Shown: positions 68 through 19,127 of the stretch, in pieces
Position numbering within the stretch: position 1 is the first letter of the stretch
How the letters are laid out: the number at the start of each line of letters is the position of its first letter
Source of the DNA: an uncultured Planctomycetia bacterium
Lineage (GTDB): Bacteria; Omnitrophota; Gorgyraeia; Duberdicusellales; 4484-171
Length of the DNA: 32,000 bases
Reading direction: 5' to 3'
Assembly (NCBI GenBank): GCA_964536865.1
Contig: CAZHYN010000001.1
Span: forward strand, 213,555 to 245,554
The notes under the pieces: model-generated
Seen by the model: only the letters and a program-made list of their open reading frames with translations
What the model was told of the DNA's origin: nothing
The model's database searches: none
Made by a program: the position numbers and the translations under genes

Positions 68-508
68 ATGAAGGATAATTTTACTCTGGTAGAAGTTATG
101 ATTGTGGTAGGGATTTTGGTACTTTTAACTGTTCTAGTAGTTCCTAATATTTTAAGAGCCCGCATTACTGCTAACGAAGTAGGAGCAATTACTTCCTTAA
201 AAACTGTCTTTTCCTCTGCTCAAATTTATAAAAATATCAACTCTGTCTACCCTTCCTCTTTAGGAGATTTAGGAGATGCTAATCCCCCTTATATTGAGGA
301 AGAGTTAAGCTGTAATGACCAACCTTGTCCCAAACAAGGGTACAATTTCACTCTTACTGGCTCGGAGTACTCTTTCTATGCGGTAGCCTCTCCTCAGATT
401 TTTGGCTTCACCGGGATAAGAAGTTTCTACATAGACGAAAATGGCCTAGTTAAGTACTGTGATACCGCTGATTGTGATCCTTCCCAGGGGATAATCCTTC
501 AAGAGTAG
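68..508 (+). CDS. Type IV pilin / pseudopilin with a prepilin N-terminal cleavage-methylation motif; Cys-rich C-terminal domain
   Basis: N-terminus MKDN-FTLVEVMIVVGILVLL has a short basic leader, Glu at +5 and a hydrophobic alpha1 helix, followed by PNILRARITANE, which is typical of GspG/PilA-like proteins. Length is 146 aa. Confidence 0.85.
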   Translation: MKDNFTLVEVMIVVGILVLLTVLVVPNILRARITANEVGAITSLKTVFSSAQIYKNINSVYPSSLGDLGDANPPYIEEELSCNDQPCPKQGYNFTLTGSEYSFYAVASPQIFGFTGIRSFYIDENGLVKYCDTADCDPSQGIILQE

Positions 509-525
509 AGGAGAATTTCTAGCCA

Positions 526-554
526 TTGAAAAATACCTCCAGGTATGCTATATT
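526..554 (+). promoter_or_regulatory. Candidate sigma70 promoter for the structured RNA
   Basis: TTGAAA (526-531), 17-nt spacer, TATATT (549-554). The spacer contains the inverted repeat ATACCT-CC-AGGTAT (533-546). Predicted TSS is about 561. Confidence 0.4.
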
Positions 555-560
555 TTAGGT

Positions 561-792
561 AGACAATCTTGGGAACGAGAAAGGCAAACTCAGGGTAACC
601 TGGGGACCCGCGAAAGCGGCTATTTACCTAACTGGGTAAATAGGCAAAGCCGTGCGTCCCGCTCTTTCTAAAACCCAGATTAACAGGGGTTTGAAGTTAA
701 AGTGCATAAGGGATGCAGAGGCAGGTAAACTGCAGGATTTAACTAGAAATATGAAAAGGGCGGGATAGGCAGGTTGCCGAATTCCTAAAAAT
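561..792 (+). ncRNA. Structured noncoding RNA; candidate c-di-GMP-I (GEMM-I)-like riboswitch variant with extra helices
   Basis: ORF-free and noticeably more GC-rich than its flanks. Many perfect local helices: 589-604 with GUAA loop, 608-619 with GAAA loop, 620-628/635-643 (9 bp), 671-676/687-692, 696-701/738-743, 703-707/713-717, and a long-range 11-bp helix 657-667/755-765. Ordered blocks resemble GEMM-I: AAAGGCAAAC + 6-bp GNRA hairpin + GAC (580-607), GCAAAGCC (644-651), GGGA-UA-GGCAGGUUGCCGAA (762-781). Bounded by a promoter-like site and an intrinsic terminator. Confidence 0.45.
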
Positions 793-821
793 ACCCAGGT
801 AGGTTATTACCTGGGTTTTTT
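793..821 (+). terminator. Intrinsic terminator (possible riboswitch expression platform)
   Basis: Perfect 9-bp stem ACCCAGGTA (793-801) / TACCTGGGT (808-816), 6-nt loop, then a T-run through 821. Confidence 0.75.
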
Positions 822-842
822 AATAGAGAGGGGGGGTAAATA

Positions 843-870
843 TTGACATTTCTTCAGATTGTGGTATAGT
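843..870 (+). promoter_or_regulatory. Candidate sigma70 promoter for the second pilin gene
   Basis: TTGACA (843-848), 16-nt spacer, TATAGT (865-870). A strong SD (AAGGGGGTGAGG, 893-904) precedes the ATG at 906. Confidence 0.5.
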
Positions 871-905: not shown

Positions 906-1301
906 ATGAGGAAAGGTTTTACTTTGGTAGAAATTATGATTGTTGTAGCAATCATCGCCCTTTTGGCAGCTATTGCTATTCCTAACCTGCTAAGAGCTCG
1001 TATCACCGCTAATGAAAGTGCTGCTCAGGCAAACTTAAGAACTATCTCTACTGCTTTAGAAAATTATGCAGCTGCTAACAACGGAAGTTATGCCACTGAC
1101 GAGAGTCAACTTACCGATGCTACTCCTCCTTACTTGAATCAATCCTTCTGTGGCAATACTATTCAAGGGTATACTTACTCTTGTACCCTTGCTGCTACTG
1201 GATACACAGTAACCGCTACTCCTGCATCCTGTGGGACGAGTGGAACAAAGACTTATACTATAACAACTGGTGGTGTTTTATCTTCAGCGGATTGCTCTTA
1301 A
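906..1301 (+). CDS. Type IV major pilin / GspG-like pseudopilin
   Basis: MRKG-FTLVEIMIVVAIIALLAAIAIPNLLRARITANESAAQANLRTI is a canonical prepilin leader (G-1, F+1, E+5) and alpha1 helix. Length is 131 aa. It has a strong SD and is followed by a strong terminator, as expected for a highly expressed major subunit. Confidence 0.9.
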   Translation: MRKGFTLVEIMIVVAIIALLAAIAIPNLLRARITANESAAQANLRTISTALENYAAANNGSYATDESQLTDATPPYLNQSFCGNTIQGYTYSCTLAATGYTVTATPASCGTSGTKTYTITTGGVLSSADCS

Positions 1302-1722: not shown

Positions 1723-2236
1723 ACTAAAGGGGGTTACTCTAGTGGAAGTTCTCATCGTTACGGCAGTTATGTCAACAATTTTTGCTAGTTTATTTTATGT
1801 GCTTACACAGGGGTACCTCTCTAATGAAATTGGGTTAGCAAAGCTAAAACTTCAAGAGGAAGCAAGGAGGGCGATAGAGGTTATAGGAAAGGATGTTCGT
1901 CAGACTACGGTAAGTGAAATCAAAAGTAATAATCCTTCCAGCTCTCACCTTAAGTTTCGTATTTATCAAGATTACTCTGGAGGTAATCCTCAATGGAGTA
2001 GTAACTATATCGAGTATACTTATGATGCCAATTCTTATAAACTTCAACGTACCGATTATAACTCAAATATTACCACCTACTTTTATAACATAGCTAGCCC
2101 CCCTTTTGATGTTGAAGAGTTAATTAACAATAACGAAAATAAAATAAGTATCGATTTAAATATGCAAGAGACAGTGAAAGGTTCTTTACCGATAAATTTT
2201 TCTTTAACAGGAGAGGTGACCATACGCAATGAGTAA
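1658..2236 (+). CDS. Minor pilin/pseudopilin (prepilin-type N-terminal domain); start uncertain
   Basis: Contains LKG-VTLVEVLIVTAVMSTIFASLF (G-1, E+5). The only canonical start is ATG 1658, which gives a 25-aa basic leader and a 65-nt overlap with the upstream gene. Confidence 0.6.
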   Translation: MSTGQREVRRELSHSRHIFLPKLKGVTLVEVLIVTAVMSTIFASLFYVLTQGYLSNEIGLAKLKLQEEARRAIEVIGKDVRQTTVSEIKSNNPSSSHLKFRIYQDYSGGNPQWSSNYIEYTYDANSYKLQRTDYNSNITTYFYNIASPPFDVEELINNNENKISIDLNMQETVKGSLPINFSLTGEVTIRNE

Positions 2237-3131
2237 AAAGGGAGTAGCTCTTCTTTTAGCCCTTTTGATTCTAGCAGTTCTAGGTATTCTAGGAAGTTCA
2301 CTTTTTATAAGTAGTTTAACAGAGAGCAACCTAACGAAGAGAGATATAAGAGGGAAAAGAGCCTTTTGGGCAGCGGAGTCAGGAATTTCTAAAGGGATAG
2401 AAAAGTTAAAAGAATGTGTACAAAGTGGTGATTGCCAGGTAAGCGGGACTATAGATTATGAAAATGAGAGTTATTCCTATTCTGCTACTATTTCCGTATT
2501 AGATAGCCTAAATTATCGTATAGATTCCTCAGGTTCTTTAGGTCAGATAACTAAGAATATTTCTGCAGTTGTAAGGTTGAGAGATATCGATGCTAATAAT
2601 TTTCCTTATGCTATAGAAACTGAGGGTCTTTTGGAGATCGGAGGAAATGCTCAGATAACTCCTTCTGATAGCACCAAAGAGCAATCATCTTTAGATTTTA
2701 ATAGTCTGTTTACTTTTACTAAGGAAGAATTAAAGTCTTACGCTGATTACACCTATACGGATCCTCCCAATAATATCACTCCTTGTGAGGGCATCACTTG
2801 GGTAGATGTATCTCCTGAGGATGAGTTTAGAATAACTTCAGATAGTTGGGAAGGTAGTGGTATTCTTGTGATTGAAGGCAATGTTAAAATAACTGGAGGG
2901 AGATTCCGAGGGATAATATATATTATTGGGGGGCAGTTAGAGGTACCTTTAGAGGTAGCAGCAGGTAACCCCATCATAGAGGGAGCTATCCTAGTGGAAT
3001 GCATACCCACTAGTACTACTCGCATAAGAGGAGATTTTACTTTGAATTATGATCTCGATGCTATCAACGAAGCTTTGGATAATTTAAGATTTATTGCTCC
3101 TCGAATAGTAGCGTGGTGGGAAGGTAGTTAA
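2229..3131 (+). CDS. PilX-N / GspK-like minor pilin (paralog 1)
   Basis: N-terminus KKGVALLLALLILAVLGILGSSLF...RAFWAAESGI matches the PilX N-terminal-domain pattern (G-x-ALxxxL helix followed by AF-x-AAE-x-G). Length is 300 aa. Confidence 0.6.
   Translation: MSKKGVALLLALLILAVLGILGSSLFISSLTESNLTKRDIRGKRAFWAAESGISKGIEKLKECVQSGDCQVSGTIDYENESYSYSATISVLDSLNYRIDSSGSLGQITKNISAVVRLRDIDANNFPYAIETEGLLEIGGNAQITPSDSTKEQSSLDFNSLFTFTKEELKSYADYTYTDPPNNITPCEGITWVDVSPEDEFRITSDSWEGSGILVIEGNVKITGGRFRGIIYIIGGQLEVPLEVAAGNPIIEGAILVECIPTSTTRIRGDFTLNYDLDAINEALDNLRFIAPRIVAWWEGS
2357..2617 (+). repeat. 261-bp block, copy A, 100% identical to 3279-3539
   Basis: Base-by-base comparison of the two stretches (offset 922) found no mismatch. 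The flanks diverge immediately on both sides. Confidence 0.9.
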
Positions 3132-3153: not shown

Positions 3154-4038
3154 ATGAGAAAAGCCATCGCCTTAATTTTTAGCCTTTTAGTAATGGCAGT
3201 TCTATTTATAATTGGGCAGTCCTTTTTCACTCAGACCTTAAATGGAAGTAACTTAGTGAAAAGATATGTAACCTCCTTAAGAGCCTTTTGGGCAGCGGAG
3301 TCAGGAATTTCTAAAGGGATAGAAAAGTTAAAAGAATGTGTACAAAGTGGTGATTGCCAGGTAAGCGGGACTATAGATTATGAAAATGAGAGTTATTCCT
3401 ATTCTGCTACTATTTCCGTATTAGATAGCCTAAATTATCGTATAGATTCCTCAGGTTCTTTAGGTCAGATAACTAAGAATATTTCTGCAGTTGTAAGGTT
3501 GAGAGATATCGATGCTAATAATTTTCCTTATGCTATAGAGAGTCAGGGAGCGATTGAGGTAAAGGGAAGTGCTCAGATAACTCCTTCTGATAGTAAAAAG
3601 GAGAATAGCGATTTAGATTTTAAAAGTTTATTTGGTTTTACTAAGGATGAACTAAAGAGTTATGCTACCTACTATTACCAGGATCCTCCCAATAATGTGG
3701 AGCCGGTTGAGGATATAACTTGGGTGGAGCTCTCTGAAGGAAAAGAACTTAGGATTACTTCTAACAATTGGGAAGGTAGTGGCATTCTGATAATTAATGG
3801 GGATGCTAAAATAACAGGTGGGGAGTTTGAAGGAATAATTTATGTGATTGGAGAGTTGGAAGTGCCTGCAGGCAATCCTACGGTAGAGGGGACCATTTTG
3901 GTAGAAGGAGACCCTTCAGAGACTACAAGTTTGAGAGGTAATTTTGAGTTAGACTACGATACAGAGGCAATAGATGAAGCCTTGAATAACTTAAGATATG
4001 TGGCTCCTCAAACTGTAGCTTGGTGGCAAACTTATTAG
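3154..4038 (+). CDS. PilX-N / GspK-like minor pilin (paralog 2)
   Basis: Same architecture as 2229-3131. N-terminal helix is MRKAIALIFSLLVMAVLFII, followed by RAFWAAESGI. The C-terminal half is about two-thirds identical to paralog 1 by eye. Confidence 0.6.
   Translation: MRKAIALIFSLLVMAVLFIIGQSFFTQTLNGSNLVKRYVTSLRAFWAAESGISKGIEKLKECVQSGDCQVSGTIDYENESYSYSATISVLDSLNYRIDSSGSLGQITKNISAVVRLRDIDANNFPYAIESQGAIEVKGSAQITPSDSKKENSDLDFKSLFGFTKDELKSYATYYYQDPPNNVEPVEDITWVELSEGKELRITSNNWEGSGILIINGDAKITGGEFEGIIYVIGELEVPAGNPTVEGTILVEGDPSETTSLRGNFELDYDTEAIDEALNNLRYVAPQTVAWWQTY
3279..3539 (+). repeat. 261-bp block, copy B, 100% identical to 2357-2617
   Basis: See copy A. The block encodes RAFWAAESGISKGIEKLKECVQSGDCQVSG...NNFPYAIE in both paralogs. 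Confidence 0.9.
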
Positions 4039-11496: not shown

Positions 11497-12068
11497 GTTT
11501 TAAGAAAGAAAAAGACCAGATAATTTTTTGGGCTCACCAGCTTTATGAGAAGAATTTAACAAAAGCTAAAAGTGGAAATATTTCTTTAAAAGTAGAAAAA
11601 GACAAAATTCTTATTACTGCTCATGATACTTTTTTAGGATATTTAGAAAAACAGGATATTATTTTGATGGATTTGGAGGGAAATATTTTAGAAGGAGAAA
11701 AAGAGGTAACCAGTGAGAAACCAGTTCATTTAAGTATTCATAAAAAATTTCCTCAAAAAAAAGCAGTGCTTCATGCCCATCCTTCCTTTGCGGTAGCCTT
11801 TTTTCATTATTTTAAAAAATTAGATAATATTTTTTTGGAAAGCAAATACTATTTAAAAAATATAAAAGTTATTACTCAAAAGACAATTAATATTACAAAA
11901 ATTGGCCCGGTTTTATCTGCTTTAGCTGAATCCAGTATAGTGATGATAAAAGACCATGGGGTAATTAGTATAGGAGATAATTTCAAGGAAGCTTTTGGTT
12001 TGATAGAGTTACTTGAGGAGCAGGCAAAAATAAATTTTTTTATGAAATTGCTAAATAAAGATGGATAA
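11493..12068 (+). CDS. Class II aldolase/adducin-domain protein
   Basis: SGNISLKV...ILITAHDT, SEKPVHLSIHK and AVLHAHPSFAVAF match the class II aldolase family pattern (SGN-S, metal-binding His cluster). Length is 191 aa. Confidence 0.7.
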   Translation: MSFKKEKDQIIFWAHQLYEKNLTKAKSGNISLKVEKDKILITAHDTFLGYLEKQDIILMDLEGNILEGEKEVTSEKPVHLSIHKKFPQKKAVLHAHPSFAVAFFHYFKKLDNIFLESKYYLKNIKVITQKTINITKIGPVLSALAESSIVMIKDHGVISIGDNFKEAFGLIELLEEQAKINFFMKLLNKDG

Positions 12069-14409
12069 AGAGTCTCGCGTTTTTAAATTAGCACGCACAA
12101 TTATTCACTTAAGAATTTATGTCATACTTTCAGGAATAATTATCTCTCTTTTTTTCATTAATGTTTTAAAAGATATAAAAATTGAGACTCATCTTGAAGA
12201 TTTCTTACCACAAAGACATCCTTTTATTAAAGTTCAGTATAGATTGACCCAGATTTTTGGAGGGCTTAATCAGGTCAGTATTGCTTTAAAGACAAAAAAA
12301 GGAGATATCTTTAATAAAGATTTTTTGGAAAAAGTTATCTTTTTAACCGAGGACCTTTATCTTTTAGAAGATGTAAATCCTTCAAGAGTTATTTCTTTAG
12401 CTTCCCGACATATAAAACATGTAACCGCAAATGAGGAAGGTTTTTTTGTAGAAAGGCTTTTAAGAGATGTTCCCTCAAAAGATAAGATAGAAGAGCTTAA
12501 AGAAAGAATTTTAAATAACCCCAATATTTATGGAAAGATAGTATCCAAAGACTTAAAAAGCACATTGATTCAGGTAGATTTTACATCTTCCGCAAGCACC
12601 TCCTATATCTTTAATACTTTGATGAAACTGAAAAAGAAATATGAGGATGAAAACACAAAGATTTATATCGCCGGACGAGCTATCTTAGAGGGCTGGCTTA
12701 ATTTTTATCTTCCTCAAATGTTTAAAATTTTAATCATCAGTTTCCTGGTAATTGGTTTTATTCTTTATCTTACTTTTCGCTCAAAAAGAGGGGTGATTCT
12801 GCCTCTATTAGATTCTTCTATGGCGACAATCTGGGGAATGGGAGCGATGAAGCTTTTAGGGTTAAGACTTGATCCTTCCACAATTTTAGTTCCTTTTATC
12901 GTTCTTTCCTTAGGGATTAGCCATTCTGTTCATACTTTAAAGCGTTATTATGAGGAGATGAGGAATCCCAAAATGAAAAGTAAACATGCAATTATAAATA
13001 CGATAGCACATTTGTTTATTCCTGGGTTAGCATCTTGTCTAACTGATGGATTTGGATTTTTATCTTTGCTTTTAGTTCCTCTTCCCACAATAAAGAGTAT
13101 GGCTTTAGCCAGTGGTTTAGGTATACTGGCTAATTTTTTAACCTCATTTATGTTTACTCCTGCCCTTTTATCTTTTATGAAGAGACCTAAAATCTTAGAG
13201 ATAGAGAAAGAAGAAAGACATAAATGGGTAGATAAGTATCTTAAACAATTAAGTATATTTTCCTTAAATAAAAAAGCAGGAACAATTGTAGTAAGTGTAT
13301 TTATTATTTTGTGTTTATTCTCATTTTTAGGGATAGGAAAGATAACTGTAGGAGAAAATACTTCCGGCACAAGTTATTTATATCCAGAAAGCCCTTTTAA
13401 CAAAGCAGAAAGATTTATTAACAAAAACTTTGGGGGGACAAATACTTATTATATTCTTGCAGAATCAGAAGATAGCCTTCTTAAGGTTAGTAAATTAAAA
13501 GCAATACAGGAACTTCAGGGTTTTATTTTAAAAAATGTCTCCTCCTGTGGTTCAGCAAGCTCTTTTGTAGATGCAATTAAGGCTCTTAATATGTTTATGT
13601 TTGGTGGAAAAAGAAGTTATTTTAAGCTGCCTCTACAGGATAAATTAGTTTATCAATATTGGTTTTTATATACGATGAGTGGATTTCCTTCAGACTATGG
13701 CCATCTTATCTCAAAAGATAAGCGTTTTGCTAATATAAAATTTGATTTTAAGAATCATAAAACTTCCACAGTAGAGGAGGCAGTAAGAAAAACAGAGGAA
13801 TTTTTAAAACTTCATGAGTTTAAAGATATTAAATTCAGTTATGCGGGAGGAGATATCGGAATTAGTTTTGCTGTAAATGAGATTATAAAAAAGACGATTC
13901 TTCCCAACATACTTTTTATCTCCTTTTTAATCTTTCTATATGTAAGCTTTGTTTATAAATCTTTTACCTCAGCAGGAATTTTACTCATTCCTCTTCTTAT
14001 AAGCAATATTGTTGTTTTCTCTTTATTTGGATTTCTTAAAACATCCCTTACTACTGAGACTTTGCCTTTGGCTTCTTTAAGTGAAGGATTAGGGATAAAT
14101 TATGGGATTTATATACTTTCTCGGTTATATGAAGAGATAAAAAAGAAAAAAAAGACTTATAGAAAAATCCTTTATGATACTCTTACAAGCAGCGGAAAAG
14201 CAGTTTTTTTCAGTGGAGTTATAGTTTCTTTGGGAATTTTTGTCTGGATATTTTCCCCTATACGTTTTCAGGCACATTTAGGAATGAACTTATGCTTGGC
14301 TTTAATTTTAAATATGTTGATTTCTTTAATTATGATTCCGGTGATGATTTGGTGGATAAAACCAAGATTTCTTTTTAGAGGAATTAAGGGAAGATTAAAG
14401 AGGAGGTGA
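12061..14409 (+). CDS. RND-superfamily exporter, MMPL/COG1033-like (HpnN/MmpL-type architecture)
   Basis: 782 aa with an internally duplicated 1+5 TM layout and two roughly 190-aa extracytoplasmic loops, as judged by eye from hydrophobic segments. The SLGISHSVHTL / SEGLGINYGIYIL helices are typical of MMPL-type RND proteins. Confidence 0.7.
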   Translation: MDKESRVFKLARTIIHLRIYVILSGIIISLFFINVLKDIKIETHLEDFLPQRHPFIKVQYRLTQIFGGLNQVSIALKTKKGDIFNKDFLEKVIFLTEDLYLLEDVNPSRVISLASRHIKHVTANEEGFFVERLLRDVPSKDKIEELKERILNNPNIYGKIVSKDLKSTLIQVDFTSSASTSYIFNTLMKLKKKYEDENTKIYIAGRAILEGWLNFYLPQMFKILIISFLVIGFILYLTFRSKRGVILPLLDSSMATIWGMGAMKLLGLRLDPSTILVPFIVLSLGISHSVHTLKRYYEEMRNPKMKSKHAIINTIAHLFIPGLASCLTDGFGFLSLLLVPLPTIKSMALASGLGILANFLTSFMFTPALLSFMKRPKILEIEKEERHKWVDKYLKQLSIFSLNKKAGTIVVSVFIILCLFSFLGIGKITVGENTSGTSYLYPESPFNKAERFINKNFGGTNTYYILAESEDSLLKVSKLKAIQELQGFILKNVSSCGSASSFVDAIKALNMFMFGGKRSYFKLPLQDKLVYQYWFLYTMSGFPSDYGHLISKDKRFANIKFDFKNHKTSTVEEAVRKTEEFLKLHEFKDIKFSYAGGDIGISFAVNEIIKKTILPNILFISFLIFLYVSFVYKSFTSAGILLIPLLISNIVVFSLFGFLKTSLTTETLPLASLSEGLGINYGIYILSRLYEEIKKKKKTYRKILYDTLTSSGKAVFFSGVIVSLGIFVWIFSPIRFQAHLGMNLCLALILNMLISLIMIPVMIWWIKPRFLFRGIKGRLKRR

Positions 14410-18164: not shown

Positions 18165-18207
18165 TCTTCTGCAACATTTGTGTTTCAAACAAAAATGTTG
18201 CAGAAGA
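18165..18207. repeat. Left REP-like palindrome
   Basis: TCTTCTGCAACATTT (18165-18179) pairs perfectly (15 bp) with AAATGTTGCAGAAGA (18193-18207). The 13-nt loop GTGTTTCAAACAA is itself nearly self-complementary. Confidence 0.75.
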
Positions 18208-19127
18208 GGAACGAATGTAGTAAATTATTGTTAAATATGGATATATTAGAATTGATAGAGAAAAAGAAAATTAATCGTTATCTGGGAGTTAATAAGAAGA
18301 TTATTTTAGAAAATAATTTTTATCATGTTACCCAAAGAGCACCGGGAAAAGAACAGTTATTTTTAGAAGAAAATGATTATCTTTATTTTCTTTATCTTCT
18401 CAAAAATACTTCTAATGATTTTGGTTTAGAGATTTACTCTTTTGTGTTAATGCCTAATCATCTTCATCTTTTATTATATTTGACTCAAAGAAATTTAGAT
18501 AAGGCGATGAAAAAACTTTTTCAGAGATACGCTACTTATTTTAATAGAAAGTACCAAAGAAAGGGACATGTGTTTTGTGGAGTATATAGGTGCGCTCTCT
18601 GTAGAGAAGAAATTTACCTTTTAGCAATTTCTTTATATATCCATTTAAATCCTTTAAAGGCAAGATTATGTAAAGATTTATGTGATTATAAATGGAGTTC
18701 TATCCAACTATATCTCGACCCTTCTAAGACCTCTTTTGTAAAAAATGATTTTATCTTAAATATTCTTCATTGTGACAGAAAAAAGGCAATTGCAGAATAT
18801 AAGCGACTTTTAGAAGAGTGCGCAAGAATAAAGTATACACCACTCTTAGAGAATTTGAGGGGTTTAGAAAAAATATGTAAGAAAGTTTCTGTACAAGCGA
18901 GCTCTTTCCTTATTAAAAAGAAAGAAAAAGCAAATAAAAAGGATTTTTTAGAAGAAAAGATTCGCCAATTTAAGGATAAAAGGAGGATAGTTAAGCCTGA
19001 AGAGAAGCAAGCATTGATTTATGTTATAGAGCAGTTGAAAAGTAGAGGCTTTAGAGTTAAAGAGATATCGGGTATCTTAGGTATAAGTCGTCATAAAATC
19101 TATCGCTTATGCAACATTTCTGTTTGA
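18195..19127 (+). CDS. IS200/IS605-family Y1 transposase, REP-associated tyrosine transposase (RAYT)-like, with C-terminal HTH
   Basis: YHVTQRAP..., HUH motif MPNHLHLLLY, RKGHVF and the catalytic-Tyr region YIHLNPLKA are present. The C-terminal ALIYVIEQLKSRGFRVKEISGILGISRHKIYRL looks like an HTH. ATG 18195 is preferred; the ORF also opens at GTG 18180. Confidence 0.75.
   Translation: MLQKRNECSKLLLNMDILELIEKKKINRYLGVNKKIILENNFYHVTQRAPGKEQLFLEENDYLYFLYLLKNTSNDFGLEIYSFVLMPNHLHLLLYLTQRNLDKAMKKLFQRYATYFNRKYQRKGHVFCGVYRCALCREEIYLLAISLYIHLNPLKARLCKDLCDYKWSSIQLYLDPSKTSFVKNDFILNILHCDRKKAIAEYKRLLEECARIKYTPLLENLRGLEKICKKVSVQASSFLIKKKEKANKKDFLEEKIRQFKDKRRIVKPEEKQALIYVIEQLKSRGFRVKEISGILGISRHKIYRLCNISV

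Follow-up and report, generated by a model that had tools for sequence, protein, structure and literature searches.

What occupies the 397-nucleotide (nt) gap between two pilin genes of a type IV pilus cluster, and does it govern the gene behind it? The cluster lies in a 32,000-nt stretch of contig CAZHYN010000001.1 (the window, whose coordinates are used throughout; all RNA and gene features listed below are on its plus strand), from a host within Candidatus Omnitrophota whose PilC is 99% identical to the PilC of the metagenome-assembled genome (MAG) B7_G16. A preliminary description, made from the letters alone, had seen in this gap a structured RNA resembling the GEMM-I aptamer for cyclic di-GMP (c-di-GMP), and had proposed either a second-messenger riboswitch variant or a new RNA class. 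The RNA at 571–785 is almost certainly a homologue of the GEMM-I (c-di-GMP-I) aptamer, enlarged by two insertions. We further consider it somewhat more probable than not that this aptamer has its own promoter, P_up, and acts as an OFF switch on that promoter, ahead of a pilin gene with a second, ungated promoter—an account whose observed part is the homology, architecture, covariation and conservation of the RNA.

The gap indeed measures 397 nt, and its G+C content is raised as described (45.6% in 560–822 versus 34.2% in the whole window). The structure of the intergenic RNA exceeds chance, with 555–830 folding at a minimum free energy (MFE) of −98.7 kcal/mol (z = −5.9 versus dinucleotide shuffles). 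The parts of the aptamer are listed here from 5′ to 3′, with helices named after the crystal structures (P1, closing helix; P2, first hairpin, the GEMM ‘P1’; P3, second arm, the GEMM ‘P2’) and G20, C44, G45, A47, G83 and C92 given in Vc2 numbering (PMC3764141, PMC4744006); labels in L denote collected loci.

571–577, plus strand: 5′ strand of P1, GGGA-A-CG, pairing with 778–785 (six standard pairs; helices 1 and 2 covary).
578–588, plus strand: junction and conserved block AGAAAGGCAAA (Rfam consensus alignment; nucleotide roles from PMC3764141 and PMC4744006).
589–604, plus strand: first hairpin P2 (distal stem), 6 base pairs (bp) with a GUAA tetraloop at 595–598 (fold; 5 of 6 pairs covary).
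605–607, plus strand: GAC side of the internal loop, with C607 as C44, partner of the bulged G83 (G768) (sequence).
608–619, plus strand: inserted hairpin 2, CCGC-GAAA-GCGG (fold; present in L229–L231, missing in L008 and L237).
620–643, plus strand: inserted hairpin 3, 10 bp with a 4-nt loop, flush with G644 (fold, covariation).
644–648, plus strand: G644 and C645 (G45, C46), closing the 2-bp stem, and A646–A648, the AAA linker (A47–A49) (sequence, consensus pairs).
648–662, plus strand: 5′ strand of the basal second arm P3, pairing with 760–775 (fold; 9 of 14 helix-7 pairs covary).
663–759, plus strand: 97-nt branched extension of the P3 apical loop, a stem with three hairpins (comparison with relatives, fold).
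760–777, plus strand: 3′ strand of P3 with bulged A767 and G768 (G83), then G776 and C777 (C92) (RF01051 alignment via L230).
778–785, plus strand: 3′ strand of P1, CG-AA-UUCC (consensus pairs, covariation).

The window sequence allows all 42 consensus pairs, and the highly conserved nucleotides are all kept (G583, C585, A586–A588, GUAA, G605-A606-C607, G644, A646–A648, G768 and C777). The GEMM-I first hairpin is defined by a stem of 2 bp, then a 3-nt internal loop, a stem of 6 bp and, as its cap, a GNRA tetraloop (PMC1950547); these correspond here to G584–C645 and C585–G644, to the AAA of 586–588 opposite the GAC of 605–607, to 589–594 paired with 599–604, and to GUAA. The AAA linker between both hairpins, nearly invariant in the GEMM definition (PMC1950547), is present at 646–648, and the interhelical C44–G83 pair known for this class (PMC3764141, PMC4744006) is predicted from C607 and the bulged G768, both of which are present. 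Residues G20, A47 and C92 contact the ligand (PMC4744006, PMC3764141); their counterparts, assigned by alignment via L230 and L008 to the Rfam consensus, are G583, A646 and C777. Since all conserved nucleotides are present, the pocket is of the c-di-GMP type rather than the c-AMP-GMP (cyclic AMP-GMP) or GGC type, and, judged from these nucleotides, the ligand is probably c-di-GMP.

The likeness to RF01051 and to the Vc2 RNA of Vibrio cholerae, which the preliminary description had drawn, was thus right in substance: closing helix, G20, first hairpin, AAA linker with A47, bulged G83 and C92 are the same. Its sequence blocks were all found in place (AAAGGCAAAC...GGGGAC at 580–607, GCAAAGCC at 644–651 and GGGAUAGGCAGGUUGCCGAA at 762–781), as were the GNRA loops GUAA (595–598) and GAAA (612–615) and the long-range helix 657–667/755–765 (11 pairs, one of them G–U); every coordinate given there proved correct on direct inspection of the sequence. 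The GYRA loop (GUAA) together with the bulge near the P3 base fits the receptor-less type among those distinguished for GEMM RNAs (PMC1950547). The differences from RF01051 are a 36-nt module, the 97-nt domain, a total length of 215 nt (versus about 85–90 nt for canonical GEMM-I) and a score below gathering.

The RNA belongs to c-di-GMP-I as a structural variant that scores below threshold, so that of the two possibilities first raised the variant stood and the new class fell. Searched with RF01051, as had been suggested, the window stays below the gathering threshold, whereas sister strains lie above it (L230, 37.7 bits; L229, 35.5 bits; threshold 35). The c-di-GMP-II model RF01786, also suggested, gave no match in 480–920 even at E up to 10. 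In a permissive Rfam scan the best clan member was RF03167 (c-di-GMP-I-GGC), with a partial match of 26.4 bits (E = 3.7e-4) in which only the 5′ half is correctly aligned and inserted hairpin 2 (CGAAAG) is misplaced on the GCAAAGCC block. RF03167 is likewise the best-scoring family for L008 (66.2 bits, above gathering), but its consensus linker reads GCGAAgC versus GCAAAgC in RF01051, and window, L008 and L230 all carry GCAAAGCC. Membership of RF03167 was rejected for the window on both counts: 26.4 bits versus at least 59 needed, and a linker that is not G-first.

Comparison with relatives sets the two insertions apart. The Omnitrophota chromosome CP070807.1 (L008; PilC 77% identical) carries a compact 85-nt aptamer at the same position and in the same layout of promoter, aptamer, terminator, second promoter and pilin, and its RNA matches that of the window block for block (AAAGGCAAAC, GNRA hairpin, GGAC, GCAAAGCC, UAGGCAGGUURCCGA) save for the two insertions. 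Three loci with pilins 94–96% identical (L229–L231) have the 36-nt insertion and a short P3, and differ from the window at few positions outside the second arm; a more distant one (L237; pilin 77% identical) has a different upstream gene and a compact aptamer scoring 58 bits on RF01051. Scores accordingly run from 58 (RF01051) or 66 (RF03167) bits in compact aptamers over about 36–38 bits (RF01051) with one insertion to below threshold with two, and it is because of both insertions that the window has no Rfam match at gathering score. This homologue pattern bears out the earlier picture, in which a GEMM-I-like aptamer has two additional hairpins behind GAC and, in its second arm, a domain of roughly 90 nt. 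The riboswitch is nonetheless absent from most related loci: our model matched in one of 80 Omnitrophota and other PilC loci (L008), and no copy was found in L232–L236 or L238–L240.

Support for the proposed helices was sought in covariation and was found. With a covariance model built from the window core, 13 homologues were aligned; 96.7% of the cells are paired, compared with 70% in shuffles, and 33 of the 42 pairs change on both sides, in an alignment fitted to our own model. None of 500 shuffles reached the observed values, and sliding the partner columns lowered the paired cells to 31–46%. Individual compensatory changes are visible in basal P3 between window and L230 (U657–A765 to C–G; C662–G760 to A–U), and in P2 the change of U590 to C in sister strains turns a G–U into a G–C pair. 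Conservation points the same way: across 571–822 we counted one difference in 252 nt, itself a G–U to G–C change, while the flanks diverge by about 4% (P about 4e-4). The cassette always lies directly upstream of the major pilin gene, in the same orientation, in three different upstream contexts.

The 36-nt module sits exactly between C44 and G45, flush with both, and turns P2 into a four-way junction. Its hairpins are maintained in homologues, the equivalents of hairpin 2 changing on both sides at three of four pairs (100% of cells paired) and those of hairpin 3 at all ten (93.5%). A pattern scan of metagenomes, whose listed matches are a lower bound from which no frequency can be derived, returned at least nine further GEMM-I RNAs in which two hairpins occupy this point, several with unrelated hairpin sequences. 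Among the inserts compared, nine of ten fold as two hairpins, flush with the conserved flanks in seven of those; eight of the nine two-hairpin inserts have fold z-scores of −2.8 to −5.1 (L212, −2.2). The pattern had been tightened before this single scan, after a trial on viral contigs in which none of 23 matches had GEMM-I-like flanks and most seemed to be chance hits in coding-like sequence. Six of the nine metagenomic RNAs pass RF01051 unaided, so annotation pipelines already call them c-di-GMP-I. Literature searches for a four-way-junction or insertion variant of GEMM-I found no description, and one for riboswitches in Omnitrophota found nothing relevant. The two-hairpin module thus defines a recurrent and apparently undescribed four-way-junction variant of GEMM-I. 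One could go further and regard GEMM-I RNAs with two hairpins between C44 and G45, or 5′ of the GNRA hairpin, as a distinct four-way-junction subclass doing what the compact aptamer cannot, with the 260-nt Omnitrophota transcript possibly a c-di-GMP-loaded RNA in its own right between tandem pilin promoters. We consider this improbable; if true, the added helices may replace the tetraloop-receptor contact, change affinity or ligand choice, or bind a second partner.

The same metagenomic survey contains other expanded architectures. A second group (L113, L134, L149, L152, L172/L211, L178, L191, L203) has its extra hairpins 5′ of the GNRA hairpin, between AAAGGCAAAC and that hairpin and often starting CUCCGCCA...UGGCGGAC, and several of its members pass RF01051. 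Tandem leaders at L194:11085–11434 and L206:689–1000 combine a two-hairpin aptamer with a compact c-di-GMP-I aptamer about 100–230 nt away. On the minus strand of L139 (about 12010–12166) the 3′ block AGCCGGGUU(G/A)CCG occurs twice, 37 nt apart; Rfam and our own model pick different copies, Rfam reading inserted hairpin 3 as the GNRA hairpin, which suggests nested or alternative aptamer folds. L152, L172/L211 and L113 carry two to three AAAAGUGCCAGGCA-like boxes between the riboswitch terminator and the next gene, whose reverse complement contains CTGGCAC and resembles a sigma-54 −24 element or an activator site. The gene downstream in L172 and L152, judged by eye, has the look of an IS200-like Y1 transposase domain.

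The second insertion has a narrower distribution. The 97-nt extension occurs in the window, L001, L002, L004 and L005 (a species-level lineage), where it shows zero substitutions versus about 4% divergence in the flanks, while L229–L231 have a 7-nt loop in its place. Together with the basal P3 stem it forms a second-arm domain (648–775) with a fold z-score of −3.5. P3 is also greatly enlarged in L151, L156 and L228, which marks it as a tolerant site. BLAST found no further copy of the extension in the collected sequences, nor of either insert in the window and all collected loci, and we rejected repeats or mobile elements as their origin. The gap had been described as free of open reading frames (ORFs); mechanically, a 38-amino-acid (aa) GTG ORF exists at 652–768, but it lies wholly inside this extension, which sister strains lack, and is therefore not credible as a gene.

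How might the aptamer act on the downstream gene? Three elements frame it, each of them located as the preliminary description had it:

526–554, plus strand: upstream promoter P_up, TTGAAA-17-TATATT with a TG-extended −10, 10 of 12 consensus positions (promoter scan; kept in relatives).
793–821, plus strand: intrinsic terminator with stem CCCAGGUAGG/UUACCUGGG, 10 pairs, a 4-nt loop and a T-run (terminator scan).
843–870, plus strand: second promoter P_down, TTGACA-16-TATAGT, TG-extended, 11 of 12 consensus positions, between terminator and pilin (promoter scan).

Transcription from P_up is predicted to start near 561. Both promoters are conserved in the window, L229–L231, L008 and L237 (TTGAAA-17-TAtAtT and TTGACA-16/17-TATAgT), and we infer from the sequence that both are used. 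P_down also persists in L236 and L238, which have no riboswitch: in L236 the two promoters are separated by about 30 nt that hold no riboswitch. Because these two loci keep both promoters without it, the riboswitch–terminator cassette appears as an optional gate on P_up only. Between the promoters of L238 (1120–1330; also in L239 and L240) the place is taken by an unrelated element, about 170 nt long and containing T-runs, for which no Rfam match was found at gathering score. In L236, L237 and L238, P_down has the conserved spacer TTGACAAAAnnGAAAGGAGGTGnTATA, and the 5′ untranslated region is about 200 nt long versus about 30 nt in the window.

The terminator stem has the same helix sequence as the first hairpin. 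It begins 7 nt past P1 without overlapping the aptamer; a ligand-bound aptamer can therefore coexist with termination, and the RNA does not follow the usual ON design (PMC1950547). (Within 786–821, UAAAAAU lies upstream of the terminator and a U-run downstream, so that the scan calls it on the minus strand as well; there is no convergent gene.) Terminator and 5′ half of the aptamer can nevertheless form a duplex of −12.7 kcal/mol, equalled or bettered by 1.2% of shuffles. In window and L230, AAAC(U/C)CAGG (586–594) is complementary to CCUGGGUUU (810–818) and ACCUGGG (598–604) to CCCAGGU (794–800), yielding a nested two-strand exchange between P2 and terminator. Elsewhere the partners differ: in L008 and L172, GGCAAAC finds its complement GUUUGCC in the loop and 3′ arm of the terminator, with GGUGACGCG additionally pairing with CGCGUCAUU in L008, and in L237 the aptamer reads GGUAAAC and the terminator GUUUACC. 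The complementarity thus shifts together with the aptamer sequence across relatives, and in five of seven lineages a duplex as good arises in just 0.8–3.3% of shuffles.

The energies of the two states, aptamer plus terminator and strand-exchanged, are as follows:

Window: −90.8 kcal/mol versus −90.1 kcal/mol exchanged (isoenergetic).
L008: −48.2 kcal/mol versus −48.3 kcal/mol exchanged (the antiterminated form being the MFE structure).
L237: −40.1 kcal/mol versus −43.6 kcal/mol exchanged.
L230: −72.5 kcal/mol versus −65.3 kcal/mol exchanged.

Of the two antiterminator pairings first proposed, that of 598–604 with 794–800 is plausible as part of the two-strand exchange, while that of 671–678 with 811–818 is poor. 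AAACCCAG (671–678) is an exact complement of 811–818, but the pairing yields −79 versus about −90 kcal/mol (a cost of about 11–12) and uses a segment missing in sister strains; we rejected it as a conserved mechanism and regard it, for these reasons, as probably coincidental. A pairing of the P1 5′ strand (568–573) with 794–799, seen in a prefix fold, was also rejected, being weakened by sister-strain changes at 568 and 570.

In the mechanism we propose, 586–604 (AAAC and both P2 strands) would, without ligand, exchange with the terminator arms 794–800 and 810–818, and transcription from P_up would read through the strand-exchanged RNA into the pilin gene. Binding of c-di-GMP would lock the aptamer, let the terminator form and stop transcription at about 821, while pilin expression from P_down would not be gated by c-di-GMP. 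As to direction, we lean cautiously towards an OFF switch in which c-di-GMP favours termination, because aptamer and terminator do not overlap, because the complementarity tracks the aptamer and because a class I precedent exists in Clostridioides difficile (PMC11477304).

That precedent is the C. difficile flgB operon, whose class I c-di-GMP riboswitch is a terminating OFF switch (PMC11477304). It shares with the window a GEMM-I aptamer followed by an intrinsic terminator, with the ligand proposed to promote termination before a surface-appendage operon; in the window, however, the appendage is a type IV pilus rather than a flagellum, an extra promoter follows the terminator, and the direction is one that we infer. 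The C. difficile type IV pilin operon matches in another respect, being directly preceded by an RNA that senses c-di-GMP (PMC11477304), but that RNA has the unrelated class II fold and is an ON switch. The merRNA of Bdellovibrio bacteriovorus, finally, is a GEMM-I aptamer in a self-contained transcript with its own promoter, which may work by binding c-di-GMP and not as a classical leader (PMC3627812); it lacks a downstream gene in cis, whereas the window cassette always stands immediately upstream of a pilin gene.

The merRNA points to another reading, which the preliminary description had also entertained: a stand-alone c-di-GMP-binding small RNA (sRNA) of about 260 nt that serves as buffer or sponge or acts in trans, with pilin made from P_down only. 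A promoter of its own and a strong, self-contained terminator bracket the RNA, a near-consensus promoter follows directly and this arrangement is kept in L008, L230 and L237, the terminator form is favoured by 7 kcal/mol in L230, and merRNA itself, a non-coding RNA that contains a riboswitch, has been proposed to store c-di-GMP (PMC3627812). Against it stands the constant position upstream of the major pilin, in one orientation across three upstream contexts, and a complementarity that tracks the aptamer sequence is difficult to account for if termination is unregulated; target sites for action in trans were rejected for the pilin 5′ regions, complementarity there being no better than in shuffles. 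We therefore regard an sRNA as rather unlikely. Less likely still is an ON switch, in which c-di-GMP would block termination and raise pilin expression as in most terminator-controlled GEMM-I RNAs and in C. difficile class II. Type IV pili are induced by c-di-GMP in C. difficile (PMC11477304), and several of the metagenomic two-hairpin variants (L212, L139) have an ON design; here, though, the terminator begins 7 nt past the closing helix without a nucleotide in common with the aptamer, there is no space for an intermediate anti-antiterminator, and the sole strong alternative pairings break aptamer and terminator together, so that termination is predicted when the aptamer is stabilised.

Might the RNA instead be a relic, in decay or blind to its ligand, which was once a riboswitch, was broken by two insertions and now serves just as a structured leader or terminator region? 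It reaches no Rfam threshold, its insertions adjoin the binding pocket, the 97-nt extension is limited to one species-level lineage, and the riboswitch is dispensable here, with its match in one of 80 PilC loci and its absence from L232–L236 and L238–L240. All conserved pocket and tertiary-contact nucleotides are kept, however, the RNA diverges far less than the genes beside it, both insertions are self-contained helices that leave the core pairs intact, and many further GEMM-I RNAs keep a two-hairpin module of this kind with covarying pairs, all of which makes decay very unlikely. We give equally little credence to a ligand other than c-di-GMP, whether another dinucleotide (3′3′-cyclic GMP-AMP, GEMM-Ib type) or something else, with specificity altered by the insertions. 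GEMM-I variants of changed specificity do exist (PMC7266159, PMC9481103), and the insertion splits C44 from G45 close to A47–A49; but the specificity position is a G (G583, the G20 equivalent) as in c-di-GMP binders, not changed as in c-AMP-GMP variants (PMC9481103), and A47 and C92 are canonical as well. Assignment to the c-AMP-GMP riboswitches (GEMM-Ib) was rejected on the identity of G583.

Several observations weigh against a GEMM-I OFF switch on P_up as we propose it. No Rfam family matched at its gathering threshold in the whole-window scan (35 bits for RF01051), and fitting the covariation alignment to our own model biases the pair counts upward. The 36-nt insertion adjoins pocket-forming nucleotides and could alter affinity or specificity. 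The complementarity in L152 and L113 is no better than in shuffles, and the terminator may form by default in the L230 clade because the exchanged form is 7 kcal/mol less stable there. The near-consensus P_down could make read-through quantitatively unimportant, a recent recombination tract, and not selection, could account for the zero divergence across 591–828, and no GGDEF or EAL gene was found within the 32-kb window.

We regard the value of the finding as moderate, lying in annotation sensitivity, in the structural tolerance of GEMM-I and in c-di-GMP control of Omnitrophota pili. Covariance-model annotation misses real riboswitches once two large insertions are present, and insertions beside the c-di-GMP pocket, in the backbone between C44 and G45, are tolerated and recur, which is of use to structural studies and to the engineering of GEMM-I biosensors. 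The locus would tie the expression of a type IV pilin concretely to c-di-GMP in an uncultivated phylum, and has the unusual logic of a terminator-gated promoter followed by an ungated one.

The RNA is embedded in a cluster ordered PilB, PilC, pilin-like gene (68–508), RNA, pilin (906–1301), minor pilins, PilM/PilN/PilO and secretin, with the following genes next to it:

68–508, plus strand: upstream pilin-like gene, 146 aa, its stop 18 nt before P_up (ORF list; pilin-like hydrophobic N-terminus).
906–1301, plus strand: type IV pilin gene, 131 aa, with an N_methyl motif, the gene proposed to be gated in cis (Pfam PF07963).

The PilB of the locus contains an MshEN domain, a domain known to bind c-di-GMP (PMC12448109). 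The 906–1301 pilin has more than 5,000 homologues, and the names shown among the best 120 are all pilin or pseudopilin, mostly from Omnitrophota MAGs. No N_methyl match was found in Pfam for the 68–508 product, whose N-terminus FTLVEVMIVVGIL is hydrophobic and pilin-like but has N instead of G before F; the gene is missing in L008 and cut to 82 aa in L230 and L231. Farther downstream, 18180–19127 encodes a 315-aa protein with an IS200-like Y1 transposase domain and a C-terminal extension, resembling by eye the proteins that follow riboswitches with 5′-side hairpins in L172 and L152. Adjacent PilX-like paralogues at 2229–3131 and 3154–4038 share long identical stretches, and their copy number varies by strain, L003 and L004 aligning differently.

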